Counted from the first letter of the stretch, positions 3,972-50,652 are shown. The stretch is 64,000 nucleotides of DNA from Eubacteriales bacterium (GCA_045651165.1 JAZRRX010000039.1:187866-251865), one strand, 5' to 3'. Translations and numbers: made by a program. Notes: generated from the sequence alone by a model not told the origin.

Positions 3972-4922
3972 TTATCCTTTAATTCCACTGCTCGACATAC
4001 CCTCAATAATCTTATCTTGGGCAATAATGTACATCACAAGTACGGGCAATAAGCAAATCACACCACCTGCCAAAGCAGTACCGATGAGATTACTTGTTTT
4101 AGAGTTGTTTATAATGTACGCCATACCAACCTGTAATGTCCACAAGTTAGTATCCTTTGCTCCGTATAACATCTGAGGCCAAATCAAATCGTTCCAACCG
4201 CCCATAAATCCAAACAATCCTTGAACAAATAGAACGGTTTTGCCAAGTGGCAATACAATTTTATAGAAAGTTTTAAAATTACTGTAGCCATCCATTTTAG
4301 CTGATTCAATAAGATCCTTAGGAATCGACTCGAAGAATGTTTTTATAAGATACATTCCATAAACACCGCCAAGTCCCGGAATAATAAGGGCTAAAAGAGA
4401 TCTATTAAGCCCCATAGAGTAGACCATTGACTGATTACCAACCGCAGTAGCAGCACCCGGAATAATCATTGAGGCAATTATACCTGCAAACAATACGTTG
4501 CGGTATTTAAAATCTATAAATGTGAACGCGTATGCCGCAAGGGATGCTACAAACAAATACAATACTGTTCCACCTATCGCGGAAAAGCAGCTGTTTAAAA
4601 ACCAAGTTCCGATTTTGTAATCCTGAACTGTATTTGCTTGTCCAATACCCTCGGGTAATTTTCCTAAAAGGAGCATTTCATAGTTTTCTAAGGTATATCC
4701 GCTATGAGGATAGAATAATTCCTTTGGATAAAGCATTGTGTCGGTATATCCTCTAAGCGAACCGAAGAACATAATAACAAACGGTGATAACCAAACTATG
4801 CAAAATATCAACAAAAATACAAAGGATATTACCTTGCCAATATTAACTTTTTTCTTTTCTCCAAATTCTTTCTTTTTACGAAAGCCTATGTATTGTTCTA
4901 AAGTTATCTGATTTCGTGCCAT
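3972..4922 (-). CDS. Carbohydrate ABC transporter permease (MalG-like)
   Basis: Polytopic membrane protein with an EAA-like loop (IESAKMDGYSNFKTFYKIVLPL). It overlaps the upstream permease gene by 19 nt. Confidence 0.9.
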   Translation of the reverse strand: MARNQITLEQYIGFRKKKEFGEKKKVNIGKVISFVFLLIFCIVWLSPFVIMFFGSLRGYTDTMLYPKELFYPHSGYTLENYEMLLLGKLPEGIGQANTVQDYKIGTWFLNSCFSAIGGTVLYLFVASLAAYAFTFIDFKYRNVLFAGIIASMIIPGAATAVGNQSMVYSMGLNRSLLALIIPGLGGVYGMYLIKTFFESIPKDLIESAKMDGYSNFKTFYKIVLPLGKTVLFVQGLFGFMGGWNDLIWPQMLYGAKDTNLWTLQVGMAYIINNSKTSNLIGTALAGGVICLLPVLVMYIIAQDKIIEGMSSSGIKG

Positions 4923-5971
4923 TTGTTATATGCCTCCGAAATTTTAGTTCCTGTTTTCTTTTCGCGAGTGATATACATCTGAATACCGGATATAATTCCC
5001 GCAAAAAGTGCGAATACCAAGCTTGCCGCAGCGCCCAGTCCATAAAGACTAGACTTAAACTGCAAATTATTCGCAACCAAATCTTGTATAAAATACATTA
5101 ATGTAGAAGTTTTACCGCCGGCGGGCATACTTGCAATTGCCGCAATTGAGGGTCCACCGCTTGACAAAACATAGTTTTGACCGTAAAGTCCAAGATAACC
5201 CAAAATCGTTGTGAACAAGCATAAAACGAGTTGGGGCTTAATTCCCGGAACGGTAACGTTTAAAATTTTTCTCCAAGTTGAGCAACCGTCTATGTCGGCA
5301 GCTTCATAAAGATGCTTTGGAACGTTTTGAAGTCCCGCGCTCAAAATAATGAAGTTACCTCCCCAACCTCCCCACAAACACATAAGGAAGATGGGAATCC
5401 ATGCGTATGCAATTTCAACAGTTTGCCCAAACAAATCAAATGAAAACCACGTATCTATAAACCACATGGTTTCAATACCAAAAAACTCTGCAAGCACACC
5501 GTGTTGAGATTTCGACATAAATAACAAGGTAAAAATAGTACCTGCAGCAGTAAGAGGTACGATTGACGGCATATAGATAAGTGCTCTGAACAATTTGAAG
5601 CCGGGTGGCTTCATATTAACTAATATTGCTAAGCCTAAAGGCAATAGAATTGCAATTGGAACCATTATCACCGAAAACATTATGGTATGTACAAAAGAAA
5701 GCCAAAAGCTATTGTAGATACCGGGCATAAACGATTTATCAAAAATCATTTTGAACCACATAAAATTGTTAAATTCTTCAATGCCCGGTTTACCATATTG
5801 AAAGTTTGTAAGTGAAATGTAAATTCCATAAAATAGCGGCAATACAAAGAAAGTTATGAATGCCGCTATATACGGTAACAAGAATATGGCAGTTACACCA
5901 TATTTTTTTAACAATCCTACTCGTCTAGATCTCTGCTTAGCATACTCTTCTAAAACGATAGTTTTTGTCAT
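4904..5971 (-). CDS. Carbohydrate ABC transporter permease (MalF-like)
   Basis: Six or more TM segments and the EAA loop YEAADIDGCSTWRKILNVTVP. Confidence 0.9.
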   Translation of the reverse strand: MTKTIVLEEYAKQRSRRVGLLKKYGVTAIFLLPYIAAFITFFVLPLFYGIYISLTNFQYGKPGIEEFNNFMWFKMIFDKSFMPGIYNSFWLSFVHTIMFSVIMVPIAILLPLGLAILVNMKPPGFKLFRALIYMPSIVPLTAAGTIFTLLFMSKSQHGVLAEFFGIETMWFIDTWFSFDLFGQTVEIAYAWIPIFLMCLWGGWGGNFIILSAGLQNVPKHLYEAADIDGCSTWRKILNVTVPGIKPQLVLCLFTTILGYLGLYGQNYVLSSGGPSIAAIASMPAGGKTSTLMYFIQDLVANNLQFKSSLYGLGAAASLVFALFAGIISGIQMYITREKKTGTKISEAYNKWHEIR

Positions 5972-37613: not shown

Positions 37614-38210
37614 ATGAAACAAATTACTTTTAAAGAATATCGCAAAATTGACATTTTCATCCTATGCTTTTTAACAGCATTTTTTGAAGCAATTGCATCG
37701 CTCGCTTCTGATAGATGGTTTAATCTTCAAGCAATGACGGTTTCTATAACCCTTGCGCTGACTTGCATAACATTTATGAGATGGAACTTGTATGCATTAT
37801 TGCCTTCATTAGTCGGTGCATTCGTATATTGCACTATTATAGGTGGAAACATTCAACAATTTCTTATTTATTGTGGTGGAAGCTTATTTATAGCAATTGT
37901 GTTCCCATTAACAAAAAAAATTACGAAAGAAAAAATAAGAAAAGACTTCTTTTTCAAAATGGTTTTTGCAAGTTCAATGTACCTATCTTTGACCATCGGA
38001 CGTTGGATTTGTTCCCTTCCTTTTGAGTTTAGTATAACAACATTTTTGACATTTTTAGGAACTGACATTCTTTCTCTTCTCTTTGCAATCGTAGTATTAG
38101 CTATTGCGAAAAATGTTGATGGACTTATTGAAGACCAGAAATCATACCTTCTTCGCCTTGAGCGAGAAAGAAAAGAAGAACAAGAAGCAAACCTAAACGA
38201 CCCTTTTTAA
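37614..38210 (+). CDS. Polytopic membrane protein of unknown function (first gene of the pectin ABC operon) with a charged C-terminal tail
   Basis: Five or six hydrophobic segments. The tail reads DQKSYLLRLERERKEEQEANLNDPF. It lies 30-43 nt upstream of the permease gene. Confidence 0.65.
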   Translation: MKQITFKEYRKIDIFILCFLTAFFEAIASLASDRWFNLQAMTVSITLALTCITFMRWNLYALLPSLVGAFVYCTIIGGNIQQFLIYCGGSLFIAIVFPLTKKITKEKIRKDFFFKMVFASSMYLSLTIGRWICSLPFEFSITTFLTFLGTDILSLLFAIVVLAIAKNVDGLIEDQKSYLLRLERERKEEQEANLNDPF

Positions 38211-38252
38211 CAAAATTCTACATTATATAAATTAAATCGAATGGAGATTATT

Positions 38253-39320
38253 ATGAAATCAACAAGAGCAGCTGATTATCTCATTTATGATGAAAAAACA
38301 GGAAAATATAGAGAGGATCCCGAACAGATGGTTCGTGATGATGTTGAAAAACATCATTGGAAACACGTTGGATTGACTATTCTTAAAGACTGGCGTCTAT
38401 ATTTGATGCTTGTTCCTATGATACTCGTATTCTTCTTTTGGAGATATATGCCAATGTATGAGCTTTTGGGTTCATTCAAGATATACGATGCGGTTGATAG
38501 CGTTGCCGACCAATTCTATTCAGGATTTTCGTATTTCAGACAGCTCTTTGCGGGAAAGACATCTTTGTCTATTGAATTTTGGAGAGCTTTTAGAAATACC
38601 TTCTTATTGAGCTTCTACGGCTTGTGCTTTGGTTTCCCTATGCCCATTATCATCGCTCTCTTCTTTAACGAAATCAAATCCAACCTTGCACGAAGTGTGT
38701 ACCAGGTGCTTACATATTTGCCAAAGTTTATGTCAACGGTTGTTATGACATCACTTATCACTATGCTTGTAAGAGCTGCTTCTCCACTTTCAGGAATAGA
38801 AATGGGAGTTATCTCTCGACTTTTGGTAAACATTGGCGCAATTACACCAGAGGTTGGTGAGATGGGTATGTTATACAGACCCGAATATTTCAGGGCCATC
38901 TACCAGATAAGTGGTATATGGGAAACCGCCGGATACGACAGTATCGTATTCTTTGCTGCAATTATCGCTATTTCACCCACAAGCTATGAGGCGGCGCAGA
39001 TTGACGGCGCTAACAAGTGGGCACAAATGCGTTACGTTGTGCTCCCAAGCATTCTTTCAACCGTTGTTATTATGCTTATAACAAGAATCGGCTCACTTTT
39101 GAATGTCGGATATGAAAAGGTTTTACTTCTTTCGGATGTAAGAAACTATGAAACTGCCGAGGTCGTTTCTTCATTCGCCAACCGTTACGGTATTGAAGGT
39201 TCATCTGCAATGTACGGCATTACGTCCGCCGCCGAAATGATAAATAACGTAATCGGCATGCTTTTGGTTATCGGTGCTAACTCAATCGCACGCAAGGCAT
39301 CCGATGTTTCGCTCTATTAA
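38253..39320 (+). CDS. Sugar ABC transporter permease, LplB/YteP-like
   Basis: The EAA loop is YEAAQIDGANKWAQMRYVVLPS. The start is set at ATG 38253, with GGAGA 5 nt upstream. Confidence 0.9.
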   Translation: MKSTRAADYLIYDEKTGKYREDPEQMVRDDVEKHHWKHVGLTILKDWRLYLMLVPMILVFFFWRYMPMYELLGSFKIYDAVDSVADQFYSGFSYFRQLFAGKTSLSIEFWRAFRNTFLLSFYGLCFGFPMPIIIALFFNEIKSNLARSVYQVLTYLPKFMSTVVMTSLITMLVRAASPLSGIEMGVISRLLVNIGAITPEVGEMGMLYRPEYFRAIYQISGIWETAGYDSIVFFAAIIAISPTSYEAAQIDGANKWAQMRYVVLPSILSTVVIMLITRIGSLLNVGYEKVLLLSDVRNYETAEVVSSFANRYGIEGSSAMYGITSAAEMINNVIGMLLVIGANSIARKASDVSLY

Positions 39321-39339
39321 TACAAGGGGGTAGTTAAAA

Positions 39340-40230
39340 ATGAAAAGAAAATTAGAAGTTTCTGAACTTATATTCAAAATAATAAGCTACGTCCTTTTGA
39401 CAATATTTGCTCTTTGCTGTCTTTATCCCTTCCTTTATGCAATATCAGCATCCATAAGCGGCATTGACGAGGTTGAACAAGGAAAAGTTGTGCTTCTTCC
39501 GAAAAACGTTCAATTTGAAGCATTTGCAAGAATGTTTAATAATAATAACTTCTGGAATTCATATACGAACACTTTGTTCATCACGTTCTACGGTACGCTT
39601 TGGGCAATGGGCGTTGCCATTTTAGGTGCTTACGCTCTTTCCAAGAAAAGATTGCTTTTCAGAAAAGGCCTTAATTTCTTCCTTGTATTCACAATGTGGT
39701 TCTCGGCAGGTATGGTGCCGCAATATATCAACTATCTCAATACCCAAAAGGTATTCAAAGCATTCGGTATAATGGATGACAAATGGCTGGTAGTAATTGC
39801 AATGGGTATGGCTGCTATGAATATTATTCTTCTTCGAAATGCATTTGAGGGCGTTCCCGCTGAAATCGAAGAAGCAGCTATAGTGGACGGTGCGACGGAA
39901 TTTCAAGTTCTTAAAAATGTATATTTGCCAATGAGCAAATCCACTATTGCAACAGTTGCCCTTTTATTCGGTATTTCCCGTTGGAACGGTTATTTCTGGG
40001 CGCGTCAAATGATTACAAATGGCAATGAACACCCTCTTCAAGTATTTATCCGTCTTCAATTAGAGCAATTTCAAGATCCTGATTATATGATAGGTTGGAA
40101 TGAAGCCTATGCCGCAGACTCTGTAATATATTCACTTATAGTTTGTTCGGTTATTCCCATCCTTATTATTTATCCCTTTATTCAAAAATATTTTGCAAAG
40201 GGCGTAAATATGGGCGGTGTCAAGGAATAA
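39340..40230 (+). CDS. Sugar ABC transporter permease, LplC/YtcP-like
   Basis: The EAA loop is EEAAIVDGATEFQVLKNVYLPM, and there are six TM segments. Confidence 0.9.
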   Translation: MKRKLEVSELIFKIISYVLLTIFALCCLYPFLYAISASISGIDEVEQGKVVLLPKNVQFEAFARMFNNNNFWNSYTNTLFITFYGTLWAMGVAILGAYALSKKRLLFRKGLNFFLVFTMWFSAGMVPQYINYLNTQKVFKAFGIMDDKWLVVIAMGMAAMNIILLRNAFEGVPAEIEEAAIVDGATEFQVLKNVYLPMSKSTIATVALLFGISRWNGYFWARQMITNGNEHPLQVFIRLQLEQFQDPDYMIGWNEAYAADSVIYSLIVCSVIPILIIYPFIQKYFAKGVNMGGVKE

Positions 40231-40306
40231 CCCCCCTAACTTTAGGTTATTATTGAGTTTAAGAGCTCATAGTAATAAATAAAATTTTTATATGGAGGAA
40301 AACACC

Positions 40307-42415
40307 ATGAAAAAACTCTTATCACTCGTATTGGTTATTGTGATGATGCTCACTCTCGTGGCTTGTCCCAAGAAACCACCCGTTAACCCTAACTCAGGTT
40401 CTACTAAGTTCGACCTTGAGTATGCTGAAGGTACTATTCTTAGAATGGCTACCGGTTATAACAATGCCAAGACAGGATTGTCATTTGATGCAGAAATAGC
40501 TAAAGACGGCATTACTCTTGCTGATGGCAAGACATATCACACCGGAGATCTCAAGCCTACTTGGGTAGAGGTTGAGAACAGACTTGGCGTCGTATTTGAT
40601 GATATATATTCCGGAAAAAGCGCCAAAGAGGAATTTGATTATTGGTCTGCAAAATTAGGTGATGTTGATATGGTTTCAGGTACCGCTTCCCAGCTTAATG
40701 AAAATGGTGTTGCAGGTAAGCTTGTAAACATAGCTGAATACCTTGACCACATGCCAAACTTCAAGGCATACCTTGAAGCCAACCCCATCGTTCGTCTTTC
40801 TATCACAGGTAATACCGATAACGGTGCTATCTACTTCTCACCCTATTTCGACGGTGTAAACGATATCGAACGTATGCCCCTTATGAGAGTTGACTGGGTT
40901 GTTAAGCTTCTTGACGGTGAAGGCGAATTCACAGCCACATCCTCAAAGAATCTTGCAGCTGCTGCATATACACCTTATATGCCCACAACAGGAACTGTAA
41001 AGGTTGACGTTGTTAAGGCAGACGGTTCAGGTGTTGAACAGATTACAAAGGATTATAACAAAGCAGGAAATATCATTGCTAAAATGAATGCAGCCGGCAC
41101 ACTTACCGGTGTTCAGGCAGTTAATATGCTTCGTAAATACATTGATGAAGCTTACAACGGCTACTACGGCACACAGAGATCCAACCTCTTCGTTGGCCAA
41201 AATGCCGCTTGGGACGCAGACGAGCTTGTTGCTCTTCTTCGTTGTGTAGTTGCTAACCCACAGACACTTAACGGTAAAGATTCTGTTCAGGGTCTCTTCT
41301 CTCGTGAAGATAACAACAACCAGAGACGTGTTGATATGTTCCGTTTTGCAGGAACTCTCTTCGGTGTACGTGGTCTTGAATCACGTCAGGATTACCTCTA
41401 CGTAGGTGCTGATGGTCAGCTTCATGACGCTCGTCAAGAGGAAGCAACATACATTGCAATCGAAAGAATGAATGCTATGGCTCAAGAAGGACTTATATCT
41501 ATATCTTTCTTGCAAAGTCAGGCTGAAAAAACCGAAACAATGCTTGAACAAGATAATGGTTTTATGCATTATGACTACAATCAAACACAGACAGTTCTTA
41601 ATGAAACAAAGCTTCAAGAAGGTGAAAAATACATGGCTGTTATGGTTCCCGTTGCTCGTTGGAATGACGGTACAGGAGAACAGTTCTTTAGATTCACTGA
41701 ATCTTGGAGATCCGTTAAGACTGACGGTTGGGCAATCTCTCTTGCAGGTGTAGGTAACGATACAAACAAGCTCCACGCAGCTCTTGCTCTTATCGACTAT
41801 GCATACAGTAAAGAAGGTCAGATCCTTATGTCCTATGGTCCTGATGCATTTATTAAGCACGATGCACAGGGCAATATGGTAACGTTCAACTTCAACGGTG
41901 AAGAATGGCCCGTTATCTCCGATGCTACCTATGAAGAGCTTTGGGATAAAGCAGATGGTAACTATACTAACTATGCTCGTCAATACCTTGGATCTACTCT
42001 TTCATTCGTTAAGAGCCAGTCCTTCGAATATCAATGCACTCACAAGGTTGGCAAGGAAGGCGCAGGTTACATTTCTACAGCTATTAGATATGGAATTATT
42101 AAACACCCTGAACTTGCACTTACAGAGAATCCTTGGTGGACATCAGTTCCCACAGTTCTTCCCACAACAAAGGTTGAAAATGACCAGATCGCTAGCTACA
42201 CAGAGCTTTCTGCAGATGGAAAATTCTCTCAATCTAAGAACAAGATGAATATTCTTATTAATATAATTGTAGGTGGATACTCCGGAGAAGGTACAGCTAA
42301 TCGCAATGAAACTCTTAACACAGTAAAGAATACATGGGGTGGTGCTAACTATCTCACAATTAAGAATAGAGCTTGGATTAAACTTCAAGAATTCTATAAC
42401 AATCTTAACAAATAA
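40307..42415 (+). CDS. Large extracellular solute-binding lipoprotein (LplA/YtcQ-like, about 700 aa)
   Basis: GGAGGA lies 7 nt upstream of ATG 40307. Lipobox LVACPKK is present. The protein sits next to LplB/C-type permeases. Confidence 0.85.
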   Translation: MKKLLSLVLVIVMMLTLVACPKKPPVNPNSGSTKFDLEYAEGTILRMATGYNNAKTGLSFDAEIAKDGITLADGKTYHTGDLKPTWVEVENRLGVVFDDIYSGKSAKEEFDYWSAKLGDVDMVSGTASQLNENGVAGKLVNIAEYLDHMPNFKAYLEANPIVRLSITGNTDNGAIYFSPYFDGVNDIERMPLMRVDWVVKLLDGEGEFTATSSKNLAAAAYTPYMPTTGTVKVDVVKADGSGVEQITKDYNKAGNIIAKMNAAGTLTGVQAVNMLRKYIDEAYNGYYGTQRSNLFVGQNAAWDADELVALLRCVVANPQTLNGKDSVQGLFSREDNNNQRRVDMFRFAGTLFGVRGLESRQDYLYVGADGQLHDARQEEATYIAIERMNAMAQEGLISISFLQSQAEKTETMLEQDNGFMHYDYNQTQTVLNETKLQEGEKYMAVMVPVARWNDGTGEQFFRFTESWRSVKTDGWAISLAGVGNDTNKLHAALALIDYAYSKEGQILMSYGPDAFIKHDAQGNMVTFNFNGEEWPVISDATYEELWDKADGNYTNYARQYLGSTLSFVKSQSFEYQCTHKVGKEGAGYISTAIRYGIIKHPELALTENPWWTSVPTVLPTTKVENDQIASYTELSADGKFSQSKNKMNILINIIVGGYSGEGTANRNETLNTVKNTWGGANYLTIKNRAWIKLQEFYNNLNK

Positions 42416-42462
42416 TTTTTGTTGAGTTATTATCAATTAACAGTTATTAATTGAATTAAATC

Positions 42463-42488
42463 GAGGGGGGAGCTCTCGCTCCCCTCTC
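42463..42488 (+). other. GC-rich intercistronic stem-loop after the binding-protein gene (no T-run)
   Basis: An 11-bp stem GAGGGGGGAGC / GCTCCCCTCTC with loop TCTC, followed by ACAAAAG. This fits an mRNA-stabilising or partial-terminator element better than a full terminator. Confidence 0.55.
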
Positions 42489-42553
42489 ACAAAAGAATTC
42501 TAATCAATACTTTAAATTTCGTGAAGTCGCGTCACGCGACAGTACGCGACAGA

Positions 42554-43162
42554 ATGGATGAAATTATGTATAAGAAACAAATGAAATTTCAAAAACTGAT
42601 TTGCCTTGCAACTCTTGCGGCATCAGCTATTCTCTTTTTATATTCTCTCGGTCTTGTTACTGACCTTTACGATGCTCTTTATTTTACAATGAGCGATCCC
42701 AATAAAATCTATGATATGAGATTTACGGATGTTTCCGGTGCTTGGATTTTCTATGAAATCCAGCCTTTTAACAAGGCGCTTACTACAGCCGCGCTTGTTC
42801 TTTTGGGTTGCAGCTTGCTCCCCTTTATCACTAATACACATTCTCGCAGAAAATATTATCTTGCCAACTATATCACAGTTGGTATCTCTTCCCTTGCAAA
42901 CGTTGCGGTTGCTATCTGGTGCTCTATTAACGTTGCCCAGTTTAGAACTCAATTTCTTACCACAGTTGATTTTGCTGCTTTAAAGGAATATGCCGAAAAA
43001 TGGGATACTCTTTACACAGAATCCACCTTATGGTTCGATTTGGGATTCGTTATTAGTGCGCTCCTTATTATAGTTACTGCTTTAAATATATTAAACTTGG
43101 TTTGGAAAAACAAACTTATGAAAGAAGAAAAACAGCTCATCGCTGAAGGATTGGAGGCATAA
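42554..43162 (+). CDS. Four-TM membrane protein of unknown function
   Basis: The ORF opens at GTG 42521. ATG 42554 or 42566 is more plausible, but no strong RBS supports any of them. There are four hydrophobic segments. Confidence 0.55.
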   Translation: MDEIMYKKQMKFQKLICLATLAASAILFLYSLGLVTDLYDALYFTMSDPNKIYDMRFTDVSGAWIFYEIQPFNKALTTAALVLLGCSLLPFITNTHSRRKYYLANYITVGISSLANVAVAIWCSINVAQFRTQFLTTVDFAALKEYAEKWDTLYTESTLWFDLGFVISALLIIVTALNILNLVWKNKLMKEEKQLIAEGLEA

Positions 43163-43164
43163 GT

Positions 43165-43650
43165 ATGGCACATAACATTGATATCAAAAAAGACCGATTG
43201 CGTTATACTAAAAACTCTTCTTCTGCTACGCAGGCGTATATTGCCATAATATTTAACGTGCTCTATTTCATTAGTATTTACAGCTATAATAAGTATTCTG
43301 GCAACTTCTATTATTCAAAAACCATTGGTTTTTCTGTTATTTCTAATCTTCTTTTCCTTCTTATGGCATTTCTCTTCTCTGAAGGTGTTAAAAACTATAA
43401 GCTTTCTCACTGCATAGCTTTTATTCCTTTGGGTGCTTTCCAACTTTTAAGAATTGTTGGTATCCCCTCAAAGGCTCACAACTATGTGTTCTTACTTGAT
43501 GGTTCTGCTACTCGCGTAATGAACGATAAACAGTTTATCTTTACATGCGTTTGTCTTTGTTGCTCAGCTTTGGCTTGTTTTGCAACTGCTATCACAGGTA
43601 TTAGAAAAACAAAAATACTCAGAGAATACGAAAAAACTCTTTCAAATTAA
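43165..43650 (+). CDS. Four-TM membrane protein of unknown function
   Basis: RBS GGAGG precedes the start. The gene begins 2 nt after the previous stop. There are four hydrophobic segments. Confidence 0.65.
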   Translation: MAHNIDIKKDRLRYTKNSSSATQAYIAIIFNVLYFISIYSYNKYSGNFYYSKTIGFSVISNLLFLLMAFLFSEGVKNYKLSHCIAFIPLGAFQLLRIVGIPSKAHNYVFLLDGSATRVMNDKQFIFTCVCLCCSALACFATAITGIRKTKILREYEKTLSN

Positions 43651-43686
43651 TTATTAATAACACTCCATAAAGAAAGGTGTGCATTT

Positions 43687-44751
43687 ATGGCTTCATTAAG
43701 CTTAAAAAATATAAACAAAATTTATGACAACAAGGTTCAGGCGGTTTTTGACTTTAACCTCGATGTTAAAGACGGTGAGTTTATCGTTCTTGTTGGTCCT
43801 TCAGGTTGTGGTAAATCCACTACATTGAGAATGATTGCAGGTCTTGAAGACATCTCTTTCGGAACACTTGTTATTGATGGCAAAGATGTTACTCAGTTGC
43901 CTGCAAAAGATAGAGATATTGCCATGGTTTTCCAGAACTATGCTCTCTATGCTCATATGACAGTATATGAAAATATGGCTTTTTCTCTTACATTGCGTAA
44001 GGAAAATCCTGATATTATTCACGAAAAGGTTCTTGCAGCAGCAGAAATTTTAGGTCTTACTGACCAGCTTAACAAGAAACCTCGTCAGCTTTCAGGCGGT
44101 CAGCGTCAGCGTGTTGCTATGGGACGTGCTATCGTTAGAACACCCAAGGTGTTCCTCTTCGACGAGCCCCTCTCTAACCTCGACGCTAAACTTAGAGGTG
44201 CAACAAGACGTGAAATTCTTCTTCTTCACAAACGCTTGGGCACAACAATGCTCTACGTTACTCACGACCAGACTGAAGCTCTTACACTTGCTGATAGAAT
44301 CGTTTGTATGTCAATGGGTTATGTTCAGCAGGTAGGTACTCCTCTTGAGCTTTATGATACACCCGCTAATACATTCGTTGCAAGCTTTATCGGTCTTCCT
44401 CCAATGAACTTCTTTGAAGGTAAGATTGAAAGTGGTTGTTTTGTATCTCCTCACTTCACTTTCACCCTCAATGATGAACAGAAGAAGCTTCTCGCATCTT
44501 ACGAAGGAAAGGAAATTATTCTTGGTTCTCGTCCTGAAAATATCGTTCAAGATGAAAATGGATACATTAAGATAAATGTTACTTTGAACGAAAACCTTGG
44601 ACAAACTACTCTTGTTCATGGCAATATAAATGGGCACAAGCTTACAGCTAAATTCCGTGAGTGGTGTGAATATAAAAAAGGTGATGTTGTTTCTGCATCA
44701 ATAAACAAAATGCATTTCTTCGATAAAGAAACCACCAATGCTATTAGATAA
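43687..44751 (+). CDS. MalK/MsmK-type sugar ABC transporter ATP-binding protein (canonical length)
   Basis: GPSGCGKST, LSGGQRQR, FLFDEPLSNLDA and YVTHDQ are present, with a C-terminal MalK-type regulatory domain. Confidence 0.95.
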   Translation: MASLSLKNINKIYDNKVQAVFDFNLDVKDGEFIVLVGPSGCGKSTTLRMIAGLEDISFGTLVIDGKDVTQLPAKDRDIAMVFQNYALYAHMTVYENMAFSLTLRKENPDIIHEKVLAAAEILGLTDQLNKKPRQLSGGQRQRVAMGRAIVRTPKVFLFDEPLSNLDAKLRGATRREILLLHKRLGTTMLYVTHDQTEALTLADRIVCMSMGYVQQVGTPLELYDTPANTFVASFIGLPPMNFFEGKIESGCFVSPHFTFTLNDEQKKLLASYEGKEIILGSRPENIVQDENGYIKINVTLNENLGQTTLVHGNINGHKLTAKFREWCEYKKGDVVSASINKMHFFDKETTNAIR

Positions 44752-44763
44752 GGAGCTATACAT

Positions 44764-45339
44764 ATGAAAAATAAAAATAAATTTTTTAAAAAGCTCCTTG
44801 CATCATTAAAGGAGTTTGCTCGTAAATTCTTGGTTACTCTTAAAAAGAATCCCAATTATATTCCTTTGACTATGCTTGTGCTTTCTTTTTTGATTTATTC
44901 TTTGAATTTAACAAGTGTTTCTGACACTACAGCTACAATTCAGGGTAAAGGTATGGGCATTTGTGAATTTGCAACTATGCTCTTCTCTATTCTTTCAATG
45001 ATTGCAATGCTTAATGCTTTTCCTAAAAGAAAAAAACCTAATTACCCAATCGTTGGTGTAATTATTGTACTTTGTGTAATCATTATCGTAGCTGATTATA
45101 TTTATGTTACTAAAGTATATGATGCATTTATAACACTTGGTGATAAGATTAACCCAAAATACTACGAAGCTTATACAACAACTTATAATATGTTGTATAT
45201 TCACATAGCTCTTATGGCTGTAACTGCAGTTACGGTTGTTCTTGAACCGCTCTTTGCTAAACTTTTAAAAAAGATTAACACAAATGTTGAACTTGAAGAA
45301 ACTAATGTTATGGACATTGAACTTGCCGAAGAGGAGTAA
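44764..45339 (+). CDS. Four-TM membrane protein of unknown function
   Basis: RBS AAGGAG precedes the start. There are four hydrophobic segments and an acidic C-terminal tail. Confidence 0.65.
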   Translation: MKNKNKFFKKLLASLKEFARKFLVTLKKNPNYIPLTMLVLSFLIYSLNLTSVSDTTATIQGKGMGICEFATMLFSILSMIAMLNAFPKRKKPNYPIVGVIIVLCVIIIVADYIYVTKVYDAFITLGDKINPKYYEAYTTTYNMLYIHIALMAVTAVTVVLEPLFAKLLKKINTNVELEETNVMDIELAEEE

Positions 45340-45348
45340 TATTTTATA

Positions 45349-45948
45349 ATGGCTAAAAACAATAATAATTCTTCTCGCAATACCGAAAAAGACAAAGATT
45401 ATTACAAATTAAATACTCAAGCAGTTGACAGATTGGTAAATGCCGATAAAAATGCTCCTCGCAGTGATAAGAAATTAAAGGATCCTGCGAAACAATATAG
45501 AACAGGATTCCTCGATAGAATACCTGCTCCTGTAAAGGCATTATTTATAAAATTCTGGTTCAACGGCGCAATTTGTTATTTCATCTTTTGGGGACTTGGA
45601 ATGGTTGTTTCAAATTATCTTGATATGATATTTGTATTAGCAATTGTTCTTGGTATGGTAACTGATATCTTGGTTAACAATGCCCTTCGTTTCGTTGAAA
45701 CTCTTCCAGGTGAAAACGACAAATGGATGATGTTTACTAAAAAGAAATACTGGACATTTATTGCTAATATTTTTTATGCTTTCATAGTTCTCTTCTGCGT
45801 GATTTGGCTCTATGAAATAATTAAAATAGGTGTTGAACCCATTCTTTTCGGTCTATTCTATATGTTATTTGATCTATTATTCATTGGTATGAAGAATCTT
45901 ATGAAAACTATTATCAATGATGCTAAAAACAAGGTAAATAAACAATAA
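45349..45948 (+). CDS. Membrane protein of unknown function with a basic or disordered N-terminal region
   Basis: An approximately 55-aa hydrophilic N terminus is followed by four hydrophobic segments. Its stop abuts the GH28 start. Confidence 0.6.
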   Translation: MAKNNNNSSRNTEKDKDYYKLNTQAVDRLVNADKNAPRSDKKLKDPAKQYRTGFLDRIPAPVKALFIKFWFNGAICYFIFWGLGMVVSNYLDMIFVLAIVLGMVTDILVNNALRFVETLPGENDKWMMFTKKKYWTFIANIFYAFIVLFCVIWLYEIIKIGVEPILFGLFYMLFDLLFIGMKNLMKTIINDAKNKVNKQ

Positions 45949-45949
45949 T

Positions 45950-47491
45950 ATGCTTAAAACACTATTTATTTCATCCTGTTCGGCGTGCTTTGAATGGAAA
46001 AATGAATTTCCATACTACGCTGAAAAAGAATATACTATCTATCTCAACGGCAAAGAGGTTTTGACCTCTAACACAAATGTATTCTCTGTTTTTGGACTTA
46101 CCCCCAATACCGAGTACAAGCTCACAAGCTCTAACGATGGTGCGGGAACAGTAACATTTAAAACCGAGAAAGACACTTATGTTATAAACGTTAAAGATTT
46201 TGGCGCAATTGGTGACGGTGTTACTGAAGATACGCAAGCAATTCAAACTGCTATTAATTGCTTGCCTAAAAATGCAAAGCTATATTTCCCTGAAGGAACT
46301 TATCTTTCGGCTCCCATTTGTCTTAAGAGCCATATGGTAATTGAATTCTCTGAAGGTGCTACTTTACTTGGACATACAGATACAAGTAAGTATCCTGTAA
46401 TTCCCGGTCATACTCTTGATATGATTAGTGGTGAGGATGTTGAGTTTGGCACTTGGGAAGGAAATTCCGTTGATATGCACCAAGCACTCATATTTGCACA
46501 GTATGCAGAAGATATTACTATTATCGGCCCTGGTACTGTTGACGGAAATGCTCAAAATTCTATTTGGTGGGATAATCCCAAAGCCCCCATTGGTCGTCCA
46601 AGACTTATCTTCTTTAATCGTTGTAAAGATATAAGCGTTCACGGAATTATTGCTCAGAATTCTGCTTCTTGGCAGATTCATCCATATTATTCTCAAAACA
46701 TTGATTTGCTTGATATTTCAATATTCGCACCCAAGGATAGTCCCAATACTGATGCTATTGACCCTGAATCTTGTGATGTTGTTAATATTATCGGATGCAA
46801 ATTCAGTGTTGGTGACGACTGCATTGCCATTAAATCTTCAAAGATTGATATGGCTACAAAATATAAAACTCCAGCTAATAGACATACAATCCGTAACTGT
46901 ATTATGCAGTTTGGACACGGTGCAGTCACTCTTGGTAGTGAAATGAGCGGTGGTGTTACTAACCTTACTGTTAACCGTTGTGTTTTCCGTCAAACCGACA
47001 GAGGTTTAAGAATTAAAACTCGTCGTGGACGTGGAAAATATGCTATAATTGATGGTGTACTTTTTGAAAACATTAAAATGGAAGGTGTTATCACTCCTAT
47101 TGCAATCAATATGTGGTATAACTGTTGCGACCCCGACAGATTCTCTGAATATGTTTGGTCACGCGAATCCCTTCCCGTTGATGATCGTACTCCATATCTG
47201 GGTAGCTTTACGTTCAAAAATATGGATTGTATTGATTGCGAAGCAGCTGCTTGCTATTGCGATGGCTTGCCCGAACAACCAATCAAATCCATAACTTTTG
47301 ACAATATTCATTTCACTTTTGCAGAAGATGCTAAACCCTTTGTTCCGATTATGAAGAACTTTGCAGAACCCGTTTGCAAAATGGGAATGTATTTAGATAA
47401 CGTTGAAACCTTGATTTTGAAAAACATTGAGATTGAGGGTGTTGAGGGCGATAAGATTATCGCAAATAACGTTAATAAGATTGTAAAATAA
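45950..47491 (+). CDS. Glycoside hydrolase family 28 (polygalacturonase/exo-galacturonosidase), no signal peptide
   Basis: The four GH28 blocks are present: NTDAID, GDDCIAIKS, FGHGAVTLGSE and GLRIKTRRG. Confidence 0.9.
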   Translation: MLKTLFISSCSACFEWKNEFPYYAEKEYTIYLNGKEVLTSNTNVFSVFGLTPNTEYKLTSSNDGAGTVTFKTEKDTYVINVKDFGAIGDGVTEDTQAIQTAINCLPKNAKLYFPEGTYLSAPICLKSHMVIEFSEGATLLGHTDTSKYPVIPGHTLDMISGEDVEFGTWEGNSVDMHQALIFAQYAEDITIIGPGTVDGNAQNSIWWDNPKAPIGRPRLIFFNRCKDISVHGIIAQNSASWQIHPYYSQNIDLLDISIFAPKDSPNTDAIDPESCDVVNIIGCKFSVGDDCIAIKSSKIDMATKYKTPANRHTIRNCIMQFGHGAVTLGSEMSGGVTNLTVNRCVFRQTDRGLRIKTRRGRGKYAIIDGVLFENIKMEGVITPIAINMWYNCCDPDRFSEYVWSRESLPVDDRTPYLGSFTFKNMDCIDCEAAACYCDGLPEQPIKSITFDNIHFTFAEDAKPFVPIMKNFAEPVCKMGMYLDNVETLILKNIEIEGVEGDKIIANNVNKIVK

Positions 47492-47509
47492 CTTTGAAAG
47501 GATGCTTTT

Positions 47510-48637
47510 ATGTACGCAAATATTGATGCTTATATCGAAAAATTGCTTAATTGTTCAACTCCCGATGCACCAATTTGGAATATTGAAAGCATCCGTCAAG
47601 GAAAAAAGCCACATTGGAATTACATTGATGGATGTATGATTACTTCCCTGCTTGAAATCGGCAGAATTAGTAGCAATCCTAAATATTTTGATTTTGCTGA
47701 AAAATTCATTGACTATTACGTTTTCGATGATGGCACTATTCGTGGCTATGACATTGAAAAGTATAATCTTGATGACTTGAATGAAGGTAGAGTGCTCTTT
47801 GAACTCTATGAAAAGACAGGTAAAGAAAAATATCGTCTTGCAATTGAGCATCAGGCACTCCAACTTAAAGGTCAACCTCGTACATGCACGGGCAACTTCT
47901 GGCACAAATTGATTTATCCAAATCAAATTTGGCTTGATGGTCTTTATATGGCACAGGTATTCAGCACCAAATATCAAAAATATAAAGGAAATAAAGATTA
48001 TTCAGACATTTTGATGCAAATCAAAAATGTTAGAAAGTATATGTTTGATGAAGAGATTGGACTTTATTATCACGGGCTTGATTGTTCAAAATCAATCTTT
48101 TGGGCTGATAAAGAAAGTGGTCTTTCAAAGAATTTCTGGCTTCGTGCAATCGGTTGGTACACTGTTGCTATGATTGACATCATTGAAATTTGCGATGATG
48201 AAGATACAAAGGCAGAAATTTCAAAGATATTTGCAGAGCTTATGCATTCAATTATTCGTTATCGTGATGACAAAAGCAAAATGTACTATCAAGTAGTAAA
48301 TATGGGTGGACGTGAAGGTAATTATCTTGAAACAAGTGGCTCTTCAATGCTTGCTTATGCAATGCTTAAGGGCGCTCGTTTAAATGTTCTTCCCCCTCAG
48401 TTTGCTAACTTTGGCAAGGAAACATTTGATGGTATCTGTGAAAGATATTTGCAAATCAAGGATGACGGTGATTTGAATCTTTCAGGCATTTGTCTTGTTG
48501 CAGGTCTTGGGCCTGAAAATAATACAAGACGTGACGGAAGCTTTGAATACTACATTTCCGAGCCGATAGTCGAGAATGATGCTAAAGGAGTTGCTCCTTT
48601 CATTCTCTGCTATACAGAAATTTTAAGAAATTTATGA
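47510..48637 (+). CDS. Glycoside hydrolase family 105 (unsaturated rhamnogalacturonyl/galacturonyl hydrolase, YteR/YesR-like)
   Basis: IWLDGLYMAQVF and FWLRAIGWY blocks are present. Size and genomic context fit. Confidence 0.85.
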   Translation: MYANIDAYIEKLLNCSTPDAPIWNIESIRQGKKPHWNYIDGCMITSLLEIGRISSNPKYFDFAEKFIDYYVFDDGTIRGYDIEKYNLDDLNEGRVLFELYEKTGKEKYRLAIEHQALQLKGQPRTCTGNFWHKLIYPNQIWLDGLYMAQVFSTKYQKYKGNKDYSDILMQIKNVRKYMFDEEIGLYYHGLDCSKSIFWADKESGLSKNFWLRAIGWYTVAMIDIIEICDDEDTKAEISKIFAELMHSIIRYRDDKSKMYYQVVNMGGREGNYLETSGSSMLAYAMLKGARLNVLPPQFANFGKETFDGICERYLQIKDDGDLNLSGICLVAGLGPENNTRRDGSFEYYISEPIVENDAKGVAPFILCYTEILRNL

Positions 48638-48650
48638 TTCAGGTAAAAAT

Positions 48651-49514
48651 ATGAAATTGATGATTCGCGCACATGACCTTTCGGTTAAAGGCGCAGAAAA
48701 TATTAATAATAAATTGTGTGAGTTGGGGCTTGACGGAGTTCAACTCGTCGTTTATAAATCCATTGAGGGTGTTTCCTACTCTCAAGGTCAACTTTCACAC
48801 GAGCAAGCGCGAGAAATTGCTCAAGCTATCAAGAAAAATGGTAAGGATATTGCTCTTATCGGGGCATATTTCAATCCAGTTCATCCCAACATCGCTAAAA
48901 TTGATAATGGTATTGCGGTTTTTAAAGATTACTTATCTTTAGCTAAAGATATTGGCTGCGATTACGTTGGAAGCGAAACAGGTTCATATAATGGTGACCC
49001 CTGGATATATCACCCAATGAATCACTCGGATGAAGCTCTTGACAGAGTTGTTGATACATTCTCTTCTCTTGCTGAATTTGCAGAATCTTGTGGTGTGAAT
49101 ATCGCTATGGAGGGTGCATTCGGTCATGTTTGCCACACGCCCGAGCGACTTTATGAAGCCGTTCAAAGAATAGGTAAAAATAATATAAAATTTATTTTTG
49201 ACTTGTATAATTATCTCGATATTTCAAATGTAGATAATGCTTATGATATATTAGACAGAGGAATTTCACTCTTGGGTAACAAAATTCTTCTTTTCCACAT
49301 TAAAGATTTTGTTATTGAAGAAAACAAGTTAAAACAATGTGGTGTTGGCAAAGGTGTTCTTGATTTTGATAGAATACTCAATGCTATATATAAACTTAAC
49401 CCAAATGCAATATTGGTATTGGAGGGTACTGTTGGTGATGATCTTCCCTTTGCAGTATCCTATTTGAAAGATAAAATCAACAAAATTGAAATGGCGCATA
49501 GCGTCAATCAGTAA
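48651..49514 (+). CDS. Sugar phosphate isomerase/epimerase (xylose-isomerase-like TIM barrel) family protein
   Basis: 287 aa with alternating beta/alpha pattern. Blocks GLDGVQL, IAMEG and LFHIKD are typical of the AP-endonuclease-2/TIM family. Confidence 0.65.
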   Translation: MKLMIRAHDLSVKGAENINNKLCELGLDGVQLVVYKSIEGVSYSQGQLSHEQAREIAQAIKKNGKDIALIGAYFNPVHPNIAKIDNGIAVFKDYLSLAKDIGCDYVGSETGSYNGDPWIYHPMNHSDEALDRVVDTFSSLAEFAESCGVNIAMEGAFGHVCHTPERLYEAVQRIGKNNIKFIFDLYNYLDISNVDNAYDILDRGISLLGNKILLFHIKDFVIEENKLKQCGVGKGVLDFDRILNAIYKLNPNAILVLEGTVGDDLPFAVSYLKDKINKIEMAHSVNQ

Positions 49515-49523
49515 AGGAGTATT

Positions 49524-50609
49524 ATGGCATACTTATCTCTTAAAGAAATTAACAAAATTTATCCCAACGGTTTCCATGCCGTTCACAACTTCAACCTTGA
49601 GATCGAACAAGGAGAATTTATAGTTTTCGTTGGTCCTTCAGGATGCGGAAAATCTACAACTCTTCGTATGATCGCAGGTCTTGAAGATATAAGCAAGGGA
49701 GAATTTTACATAGACGGCAAATATGCCAATGAAATGCGTCCCAGAGAGCGTGGCGTTGCGATGGTTTTCCAAAGTTATGCGCTTTATCCCCATCTTTCTG
49801 TTTATGATAATCTTGCGTTTGGTCTTTCACTCCAAGGTGTTGATGATGACATTATAGAAGAAAAGGTATTGGCTACTGCTAAAATACTTGGTCTTACAGA
49901 TTATCTTGACAGAAAGCCAAGAGCTCTTTCAGGTGGTCAGCGTCAAAGAGTTGCTGTTGGTCGTGCTATCATTCGTAAGGTTGGTATCTTCCTTATGGAC
50001 GAGCCCTTGTCAAACCTTGATGCAAAGCAGCGTGTAACTATGCGTTCTGAAATTACTGATATTCATAGAAAAGTTGGTTCAACAACAATCTACGTTACTC
50101 ATGACCAAACTGAAGCTATGACTATGGCTGACAGAATTGTCGTTATGAAAGACGGTTATATCCAACAGGTAGGTCGTCCCTATGACCTTTACTTCAAGCC
50201 CGTTAACCTTTTCGTTGCAGGATTTATTGGCGAGCCCCCTATGAACTTCGTACGTACAACTGTTAATAATCGTTGCGTTGAAATTGCCGGCGCTAAACAC
50301 GATCTCTCTTTGATTGTTGGTGATGCTATTGACGCTTATGATGGTAAGGATATAGTACTTGGCTTCCGTCCCGAAGCAATTTCTCTTGCAGATGTAGCAA
50401 ACTCATTTAAGTTCTCTGCTGAAGTTGAACTTACTGAGCTTCTTGGTGACAACACAAATGTTTATGTTGATATGCTTGGAAATAAGGTTATCCTTAAGGT
50501 TGATCCACACGATACTCCAAAAATGGATACAAAAATTTCTTTCTGTGTTCCTCACAATAGTGTTTATCTCTTTGATGCGGAAACCGAAGATGTTATCAAT
50601 GAATATTAA
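49524..50609 (+). CDS. Second MalK/MsmK-type sugar ABC transporter ATP-binding protein (canonical length)
   Basis: GPSGCGKST, LSGGQRQR, FLMDEPLSNLDA and YVTHDQ are present. RBS AAGGAG precedes the start. It is the last gene of the operon. Confidence 0.95.
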   Translation: MAYLSLKEINKIYPNGFHAVHNFNLEIEQGEFIVFVGPSGCGKSTTLRMIAGLEDISKGEFYIDGKYANEMRPRERGVAMVFQSYALYPHLSVYDNLAFGLSLQGVDDDIIEEKVLATAKILGLTDYLDRKPRALSGGQRQRVAVGRAIIRKVGIFLMDEPLSNLDAKQRVTMRSEITDIHRKVGSTTIYVTHDQTEAMTMADRIVVMKDGYIQQVGRPYDLYFKPVNLFVAGFIGEPPMNFVRTTVNNRCVEIAGAKHDLSLIVGDAIDAYDGKDIVLGFRPEAISLADVANSFKFSAEVELTELLGDNTNVYVDMLGNKVILKVDPHDTPKMDTKISFCVPHNSVYLFDAETEDVINEY

Positions 50610-50620
50610 TACTTAAATAA

Positions 50621-50652
50621 AAAAGCAGGTGGCATTAAGCCACCTACTTTTT
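50621..50652. terminator. Bidirectional terminator between the pectin ABC operon and uxaC
   Basis: A-run, stem AGGTGGC / GCCACCT, then TTTTT. Confidence 0.8.

Follow-up and report, generated by a model that had tools for sequence, protein, structure and literature searches.

Five orphan membrane-protein families and two dedicated ATPases accompany an AlgM1M2/AlgQ-type importer in uncultured gut and rumen bacteria

Type I ATP-binding cassette (ABC) importers are among the best-understood membrane machines, with an accepted composition of a pair of membrane subunits, a pair of ATPases and a binding protein. What place, then, do five further membrane proteins and a second ATPase gene have in the operon of such an importer? 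This question is raised by a 64,000-nucleotide stretch of DNA from a Eubacteriales bacterium (GCA_045651165.1, JAZRRX010000039.1:187866-251865; the whole stretch is called the window below), in which thirteen co-directional open reading frames (ORFs) on the plus strand form a single operon at positions 37614-50609. The gene order is S1, P1, P2, SBP, S2, S3, A1, S4, S5, GH28, GH105, TIM and A2, where S1 to S5 are small membrane proteins, P1 and P2 permeases, SBP a solute-binding lipoprotein, A1 and A2 ATPases, GH28 and GH105 glycoside hydrolases, and TIM a TIM-barrel protein (Table 1). An earlier note on the window had described this layout as a pectin-oligosaccharide operon that departs from the textbook stoichiometry; all thirteen ORFs were found as described, and the unusual gene content, with five extra membrane genes and two nucleotide-binding domain (NBD) paralogues, was confirmed. 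In this study, we found that an AlgM1M2/AlgQ-type importer is inseparable from the five orphan membrane proteins and has two ATPases of its own, with which it makes up a conserved unit of nine to ten genes.

Conservation of the gene unit

A profile of S5 was scanned against one genome per species (185,579 species), which yielded 350 confirmed loci. Of these, the 80 best were retrieved together with 10 kb of sequence on either side, and the synteny set comprised 83 loci, 59 complete and 24 truncated. The order S1-P1-P2-SBP-S2-S3-A1-S4-S5 is found in all 59 complete loci, and the 24 truncated ones agree with it. This survey, which the earlier note had proposed, thus indicates that the departure from the textbook layout is conserved across loci and not accidental. 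All carriers among the examined loci are metagenome-assembled genomes (MAGs) of rumen, gut or comparable origin; their labels are Lachnospiraceae, Oscillospiraceae/Ruminococcus, Erysipelotrichaceae, Christensenellaceae, Eubacteriales, Clostridia and Sphaerochaetaceae/Spirochaetales. Even the deep-branching locus L153, from another order of the class, contains all five S genes and A1, together with a P1 that is 59% identical and an SBP of 935 amino acids. Across loci the core proteins are 70-90% identical and the S proteins 30-80%; the S proteins evolve faster than the core, yet they are never lost in the examined loci.

The genes downstream of S5 are less constant, being GH28-GH105-TIM-A2, GH28-GH105-A2, or A2 directly (21 loci), and TIM is missing from several loci that have both GH28 and GH105. 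The 21 loci devoid of GH28, GH105 and TIM retain all five S genes in unchanged order. Both kinds of layout were also seen in two contigs found via S5 homologues, one of which has the full thirteen-gene arrangement and the other S1-P1-P2-SBP-S2-S3-A1-S4-S5-A2-AraC with no glycosidases; several loci have an AraC-type regulator close to the module. Among the examined loci, GH28, GH105 and TIM are optional passengers, and S1 to S5 are not.

Co-occurrence was examined in two equally drawn samples of 201 genomes from the order of the window, one searched with S5 and the other with P1. S5 was present in four genomes in addition to the window's own; a sixth weak match (genome G135, locus L014) was discarded as spurious, the S5 hidden Markov model finding nothing there. 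LplB/AlgM1-like permeases were present in 58 genomes. Only the four S5-positive genomes gave a P1 match of at least 57% identity with an alignment reaching the N-terminal 30 residues, and all the remaining matches had at most 42% identity, alignments starting at residues 39-53, and no S5. In this sample S5 is therefore confined to one P1 clade, which carries an N-terminal extension, and the S genes were never seen without P1-P2-SBP, either in the related loci or in the sampled genomes.

One complete module of Firmicutes type is located in a Myxococcota bin (L090, JAMPHX010000002.1, labelled Corallococcus sp. MAG). Its A1 groups with those of Clostridia, and binning contamination or recent transfer is the likely explanation.

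Importer core, ATPases and operon signals

Both permeases contain the BPD_transp_1 domain and one EAA coupling motif each (EAAQIDGA and EAAIVDGA), and they match AlgM1 (4tqu_M, E 1.2e-62, alignment beginning at residue 46) and AlgM2 (4tqu_N, E 3e-75), in agreement with the permease pair proposed earlier. The lipoprotein required more effort. As a single sequence, SBP matched nothing in Pfam, NCBIfam (even at E <= 1) or PDB; a profile of 31 SBP orthologues matched AlgQ1/AlgQ2 (E ~4e-10) and family-1 solute-binding proteins (5gx8 and others). SBP is thus a very divergent AlgQ-like family-1 binding protein, and the likeness to LplA suggested in the earlier note could not be shown. Likewise, the core that had been compared to that of B. 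subtilis is recognizable in its permeases and lipoprotein, and its closest solved relative is AlgM1M2SS-AlgQ. With two EAA permeases, a family-1 binding protein and a MalK/MsmX-type NBD bearing a regulatory domain, the core is best classified as a type I ABC importer of the carbohydrate uptake transporter-1 (CUT1) / AlgM1M2SS-AlgQ lineage. The P1-P2-SBP-ATPase part is by itself complete by textbook standards, and it is this completeness that makes the extra genes noteworthy.

AlgM1M2SS-AlgQ1/AlgQ2, the alginate system of Sphingomonas sp. A1 (4tqu, 4xig, 4xtc), has homologous permeases, a homologous binding protein and an AlgS-like ATPase. The likeness extends to the substrate class (acidic uronate polymers or oligomers), the EAA loops and the MalK-type NBDs with regulatory domain. 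In contrast, the system described here has five extra conserved membrane proteins, two diverged ATPase paralogues, a 45-residue N-terminal extension of P1, and a binding protein that is ~200 residues longer than AlgQ and lipid-anchored. To our knowledge, AlgM1M2SS is a four-chain complex with a binding protein and a single ATPase gene (an AlgS homodimer), and has no further membrane subunits. The P1 extension, a cytoplasmic segment of ~45 residues with the motif DYLVYDExTGKYxEDPEQxVRDDVEKHxW, is conserved in 60 module orthologues and absent from AlgM1, and may be regarded as a candidate docking element for the extra parts.

Compared by description, the B. subtilis CUT1 systems for pectin fragments, YtcQP-YteP and YesOPQ, are also similar in having an LplB/LplC-type permease pair, a large lipoprotein as binding protein, pectin oligosaccharides as substrates, GH105 and GH28-type enzymes nearby and an MsmX-type ATPase; however, the shared MsmX of B. 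subtilis is encoded elsewhere, whereas two dedicated ATPases are encoded within the module here (general background and PMC5730181).

As the earlier note had stated, both ATPases are full-length and of the UgpC/MalK type. They score above the UgpC cut-off (456 bits for UgpC versus ~146-151 bits for ECF_ATPase_1), have intact and conserved Walker A, Q-loop, signature, Walker B and H-loop motifs, retain full C-terminal regulatory domains, and are 53% identical to each other. The best solved relatives of A1 are B. subtilis MsmX (6yir), 7x0q and AlgS (E 3e-105). In a maximum-likelihood tree of 22 A1 and 20 A2 sequences, three other MalK-type ATPases of the genome and one from L090, A1 and A2 form separate clades (support 98/98 and 100/100), both on long stems and with internal groupings that largely match. 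Of the genome's other MsmX-like proteins, C51 and C28 fall near A2 with weak support, and the one from C39 lies outside both clades, together with the L090 sequence. Because the two clades are separate, well supported and largely congruent, A1 and A2 are module-specific lineages that diversified along with the module. In the window A2 closes the operon after TIM, as had been noted, and is followed by a terminator-like hairpin; it lies upstream of S1 in two Christensenellaceae-type loci (L084 and L085), and no A2 was found within 5 kb in L153. The heterodimeric ATPase envisaged earlier is thus plausible in that both ATPases belong to the module, although A2 is not always in the locus, and an A1/A2 heterodimer would be the simplest reading.

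The window also contains another unusual MalK-type ATPase, of 692 residues (1881-3959, minus strand), which adjoins another CUT1 permease pair (3972-4922 and 4904-5971, likewise on the minus strand). Its Q-loop region and signature motif are set apart by an insertion of ~130 residues, and its C-terminal part greatly exceeds that of MalK in length. A split gene was considered in a tblastn search with A1 and rejected, the ORF being intact.

Intergenic gaps in the operon are 1-61 nt except for a 138-nt spacer downstream of SBP, and no convincing internal terminator was found within 37614-50609. The G/C-rich stem-loop in this spacer has no T-run and was not called an intrinsic terminator; it is probably a stabilizer of the mRNA 3'-end that would raise SBP expression relative to the downstream genes. 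The same spacer contains a palindrome, GTCGCG...CGCGAC (42526-42540), and the two elements together look like a candidate mRNA stabilizer or processing site that would set the ratio of SBP to downstream products. Shine-Dalgarno (SD)-like motifs precede P2, S3, A1, S4, S5, GH105 and A2. In P1, SBP and S2, GGAG or GGATGA lies within the first codons and is followed by a second ATG (38253, 40307 and 42566, respectively). Based on these motifs and on the N-termini of orthologues, the first ATG (38241, 40292 and 42554) is probably not the true start.

S3, A1, S4 and S5 share one reading frame in the window (43165-45948), with a TAA and three codons between S4 and S5. Of the 83 loci, 43 have these two genes in frame, and in 39 of the 43 the spacer is at most 20 nt, mostly one stop plus 6 or 9 nt. 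Spacers of 5, 7 or 8 nt are frequent among the loci as well, so that we see no case for programmed read-through. The median S4-S5 gap is 9 nt; that between S2 and S3 is 1 nt, the two genes overlapping in 33 of 75 pairs.

Table 1. Features of the operon and its spacer and end, in positions of the window
Feature	Position	Strand	Description
S1	37614..38210	+	198 aa, ~6 TM (transmembrane helices), N-in/C-in; orphan family; first gene of module in all loci
P1	38241..39320 (start probably 38253)	+	AlgM1-like permease; BPD_transp_1 (PF00528), EAA motif
P2	39340..40230	+	AlgM2/MalG/UgpE-type permease; BPD_transp_1 (PF00528), EAA motif, UgpE/MalG NCBIfam matches
SBP	40292..42415 (start probably 40307)	+	707-aa lipoprotein, lipobox LVAC, signal peptide; divergent AlgQ-like family-1 solute-binding protein
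Stem-loop	42463..42488	+	G/C-rich, no T-run; in 138-nt SBP-S2 spacer
S2	42554..43162 (orthologues start MYKKQM = 42566)	+	~198-202 aa, 4 TM, N-in/C-in; orphan family
S3	43165..43650	+	161 aa, 4 TM, extracellular beta-hairpin; orphan family
A1	43687..44751	+	MsmX/AlgS/MalK-type ATPase; ABC_tran + OB_MalK; between S3 and S4 in every locus
S4	44764..45339	+	191 aa, 4 TM, basic N-terminal head; orphan family
S5	45349..45948	+	199 aa, 4 TM, 60-aa cytoplasmic head; orphan family
GH28	45950..47491	+	exo-polygalacturonase-like, apparently cytoplasmic; PF00295, PF12708; PglA-like NCBIfam match
GH105	47510..48637	+	GH105/GH88 unsaturated uronyl hydrolase; PF07470, E 1.8e-82; presence varies among loci
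TIM	48651..49514	+	xylose-isomerase-like TIM-barrel protein; AP_endonuc_2 (PF01261), E 9e-30
A2	49524..50609	+	second MalK-type ATPase with TOBE domain; ABC_tran + OB_MalK + TOBE_2; usually last gene
Hairpin	50627..50645	+	terminator-like, with T-run; operon end, downstream of A2

The five small membrane proteins

S1 to S5 together have ~22 predicted TM helices, as judged from hydropathy, the positive-inside rule and AlphaFold2 models, and all five are predicted to have both termini in the cytoplasm. The first ATPase is bracketed by four four-helix proteins (S2 and S3 upstream, S4 and S5 downstream) rather than by three as previously noted. In alignments of 56-84 orthologues per family, invariant residues and long motifs are found in the cytoplasmic segments, the outer loops and the membrane helices. 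S1 has a conserved cytoplasmic tail, DGMIEDQKxYLxRL, and conserved intramembrane residues E25, R56-W57, G129-R130 and D151. The conserved motifs of S2 are YSLGxxTD, QxFN, RRKYYxxNY and STFWFD, and those of S3 are KKDRxRYTKN, NLLFLLxxFLxSEGVKNYK and GxxQxVRIxxxP. In S4, an extracellular loop (YSLNLTxISNTTAK), the motif AFPKRxKPN and an acidic tail are conserved, and S5 has the head motif YYKLxTDAVDRLVNA...YRSGFLDRIP and conserved polar residues (K68, D92, D106, N110-N111, E163-P164, D175 and K182), several of them apparently within predicted TM helices.

The ratio of nonsynonymous to synonymous substitution rates (dN/dS) against close orthologues is 0.08-0.35, mostly 0.08-0.2 (S1 0.12; S3 0.08-0.12), with dS near saturation. 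The earlier note had reasoned that a lack of conservation, or substitutions indifferent to frame, would speak against these small ORFs; instead, purifying selection acts in the called frames, and S1 to S5 are real genes. They are not rare: S5 has 1179 homologues in a collection of 5.8 billion proteins (412 cluster representatives at 50% identity), and S1 has 542, every one named "hypothetical". For the S families in general, homologues are named only "hypothetical protein" in their sources, and a precomputed Pfam domain is recorded for a single S5 homologue alone.

That homologue (P0080, 273 residues, on a 1146-nt ENA contig) is 67% identical to S5 and has an XRE-type helix-turn-helix (HTH; PF01381, PF12844 and PF13560) in place of the N-terminal head; it is either a true DNA-binding membrane variant or the product of a chimeric contig. 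Another (P0391, 370 residues, on a 1337-nt contig) runs into an unrelated C-terminal region of ~185 residues with an EYHLQGN motif, which is not GH28 and is probably an insertion or an assembly chimera.

None of the five proteins matched Pfam or NCBIfam even at E <= 1, a Pfam scan of 150 family members (30 per family) gave only scattered sub-threshold matches with nothing consistent, and sequence-profile searches of PDB with all five families returned nothing credible; a match of S1 to EMC4 (E 0.017) was taken as chance. The earlier statement that the five belong to no recognizable family is thus upheld. Paralogy among them, which the earlier note had suggested checking pairwise and by profile, was rejected: all ten BLASTP pairs gave E >= 0.1, and hhalign of the family profiles gave 0.1-7.3%, below 8% throughout. 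Nor were paralogues of S1 to S5 found elsewhere in the 1.6-Mb genome. By these searches S1 to S5 constitute five different orphan families, for which Pfam (2025 models), NCBIfam 20.0 and PDB hold nothing. The full-text literature searched, including a 2026 review on glycoside transport in bacteria, makes no mention of such accessory membrane proteins.

Two known kinds of small membrane protein were considered as identities. YesL and YteU (DUF624), which we take to be the small membrane proteins of the B. subtilis LplABC-type loci, are unrelated to S1 to S5 by profile comparison: there was no PF04854 match in S1 to S5 or in the whole genome, and hhalign to a DUF624 alignment gave at most 1.1%. 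In relatives, only 5 of 25 loci with DUF624 genes have genes of an ABC transporter within 1.5 kb, so no general link can be drawn. Energy-coupling factor (ECF) transporters also combine several small membrane subunits and two different ATPases in one operon, and the size and topology of S1 (~6 TM, 198 residues) fit an ECF S component. Such components are notoriously divergent. However, hhalign of S1 to S5 with PF12822 S components from neighbouring genomes gave at most 2.5% (the value for S1), although one S1-family member among the 150 had a weak ECF_trnsprt match (E 0.0013). No CbiQ/EcfT match was found among S1 to S5 or the 150 family members. Unlike ECF transporters, the system has a full type I core dependent on a binding protein, no EcfT homologue, and ATPases of the UgpC/MalK type, not EcfA. 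It is not an ECF transporter by these features, and the profiles lend no support to S1 as an S component.

Natural fusions of S proteins to each other, to transporter parts or to GH28 were not found in the 83 loci; the 150 best representatives of S5 likewise had none, low-complexity tails being present in the long proteins, and a search with the S4-S5 read-through sequence found none. Artificial joins were modelled. For S4-S5, positions 44764-45945 were translated with the TAA as Gly, and 39 read-through pairs and 90 unpaired orthologues were aligned. AlphaFold2 predicted two four-helix membrane bundles joined by a disordered linker, which consists of the tail of S4 and the head of S5 (mean predicted local distance difference test score, pLDDT, 84.9; predicted template modelling score, pTM, 0.74). 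The S2-S3 join from locus L060, whose proteins are ~48% identical to those of the window, gave pLDDT 92.0 and pTM 0.69. A pTM of ~0.7 for artificially joined proteins with long flexible links suggests a confident mutual arrangement, and the models would fit the view that S4-S5 and S2-S3 are heterodimers. A Foldseek comparison of both models with PDB, also proposed in the earlier note, gave nothing better than E 0.08, and the matches were only designed four-helix bundles, tetraspan subunits and low-TM alignments to the major facilitator superfamily. The predicted folds of S2 to S5 are thus generic helix bundles and give no functional lead.

Possible roles of the extra subunits

In our view the most likely reading, with about an even chance, is that S1 to S5 are obligate accessory subunits of the importer, which an A1/A2 heterodimer would power. 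The importer would take up acidic pectin fragments, namely saturated and unsaturated oligogalacturonides, and GH28 and GH105, both of which had been named in the earlier note and match PF00295 and PF07470, would trim the imported fragments in the cytoplasm where they are present. In its clade, five obligate small membrane partners would have been gained, along with two diverged ATPases of the MsmX type that are dedicated to it. S2-S3 and S4-S5 would each form an eight-helix heterodimer and, together with the six-helix S1, pack round the P1-P2 core; the cytoplasmic heads and tails of the S proteins and the N-terminal extension of P1 would contact the ATPase heterodimer, and the conserved outer loops would be turned towards the binding lipoprotein, which is unusually large. 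In a structural or gating role, S1 to S5 may fit the core for long, charged substrates or govern its ATPase cycle. We favour accessory subunits because S5 is exclusive to one permease clade that has an extra cytoplasmic segment of its own, because the cytoplasmic heads and tails and the outer loops of the S proteins are conserved, because the gene order is fixed with translational coupling, and because the substrate would be long and polyanionic and the binding protein is oversized.

Several points weigh against this proposal. The association of the S proteins with P1-P2 or with the ATPases is one that we infer from sequence and models, and the models are AlphaFold2 predictions on two artificial joins, for which the mutual arrangement was judged by pTM only. 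As far as we know, the solved relative AlgM1M2SS works without any extra membrane subunit, so that the core would in principle need none, and P1 and P2 already provide the two EAA docking sites needed by two NBDs. The lack of natural S-S or S-transporter fusions in the 83 loci and 150 S5 representatives also counts against it, and the occasional absence of A2 from the locus weakens a strict A1/A2 heterodimer. A more ambitious version, which we regard as possible though doubtful, is a new importer architecture, in which an AlgM1M2-type core is permanently ringed by five non-homologous subunits (~22 helices), works with an obligate A1/A2 heterodimer and has gained a second substrate-handling or gating element. 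For this element, a capture site resembling an S component, or a lateral route for long polyanionic oligosaccharides, can be envisaged.

Alternatively, the operon may encode two machines: an ordinary importer of P1-P2-SBP served by A2 or by a shared MsmX, and a new A1-powered transporter with S2-S3 and S4-S5 as its halves and S1 perhaps as a capture subunit, or an exporter. The constant position of A1 between S2-S3 and S4-S5, when A2 moves or is absent, would fit such an arrangement, as would the long stem branch of A1, the predicted pairs, which would make two eight-helix halves, the S-component size and topology of S1 (cytoplasmic termini included), the weak ECF_trnsprt match of one S1-family member, and the conserved charged residues of S1 and S5, several apparently within TM helices. 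However, A1 belongs to the ordinary NBDs of MsmX/AlgS type, which dock on EAA coupling helices, whereas no EAA-like motif or long coupling loop was seen in S1 to S5. Moreover, there is no EcfT-like protein, the profile scores of A1 and A2 are much higher for UgpC/MalK than for ECF ATPases, the hhalign value of S1 against PF12822 relatives is low (2.5%), A1 is the sole ATPase in the L153 locus, beside P1-P2, and the S genes never occur without P1-P2-SBP. We therefore judge two machines distinctly improbable.

It is unlikely, too, that the five proteins are auxiliary factors, such as membrane-anchored regulators of the ATPases (by analogy with the proteins that bind the regulatory domain of MalK), a sensor feeding the neighbouring AraC regulator, or assembly and tethering factors for the large binding protein or the cytoplasmic enzymes. 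Such roles would be in keeping with the conserved cytoplasmic heads and tails of S1, S2, S4 and S5, the full regulatory domains of both ATPases, the AraC-type regulators near several modules, the XRE HTH that replaces the head in one S5 homologue, and the start of GH28 only 1 nt after S5 in the window. On the other hand, five separate polytopic proteins in fixed order with near-universal translational coupling are a lot for a regulator, no kinase, PAS, HAMP or other signalling domain is present in S1 to S5, and the XRE fusion is known from a single 1.1-kb contig that may be chimeric. The scaffold for intracellular glycosidases proposed in the earlier note is unlikely as a main role because the 21 glycosidase-free loci keep all five S genes, and no GH28 fusion occurs in the 83 loci or 150 representatives. 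Finally, the notion that S1 to S5 are hitchhikers or over-called ORFs with no importer-linked function has in its favour only the lack of a family assignment or fold match. It is effectively refuted by purifying selection in the called frames, hundreds of homologues, invariant synteny across families and two phyla, SD-like motifs upstream of S3, S4 and S5, and the confident models of S4-S5 and S2-S3, which leave it a negligible chance.

In summary, five new membrane-protein families with clear conserved motifs are defined here. That a widespread clade of importers is always accompanied by five additional membrane proteins and two ATPases of its own points to an elaboration of the type I importer that has not been described. 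The module is found in about 350 species-level genomes, in MAGs from gut, rumen and similar sources, and concerns the uptake of pectin fragments by uncultured bacteria of the herbivore and human gut. If the extra subunits do form a second translocation or capture element, the system would be more than a variant of a known importer.

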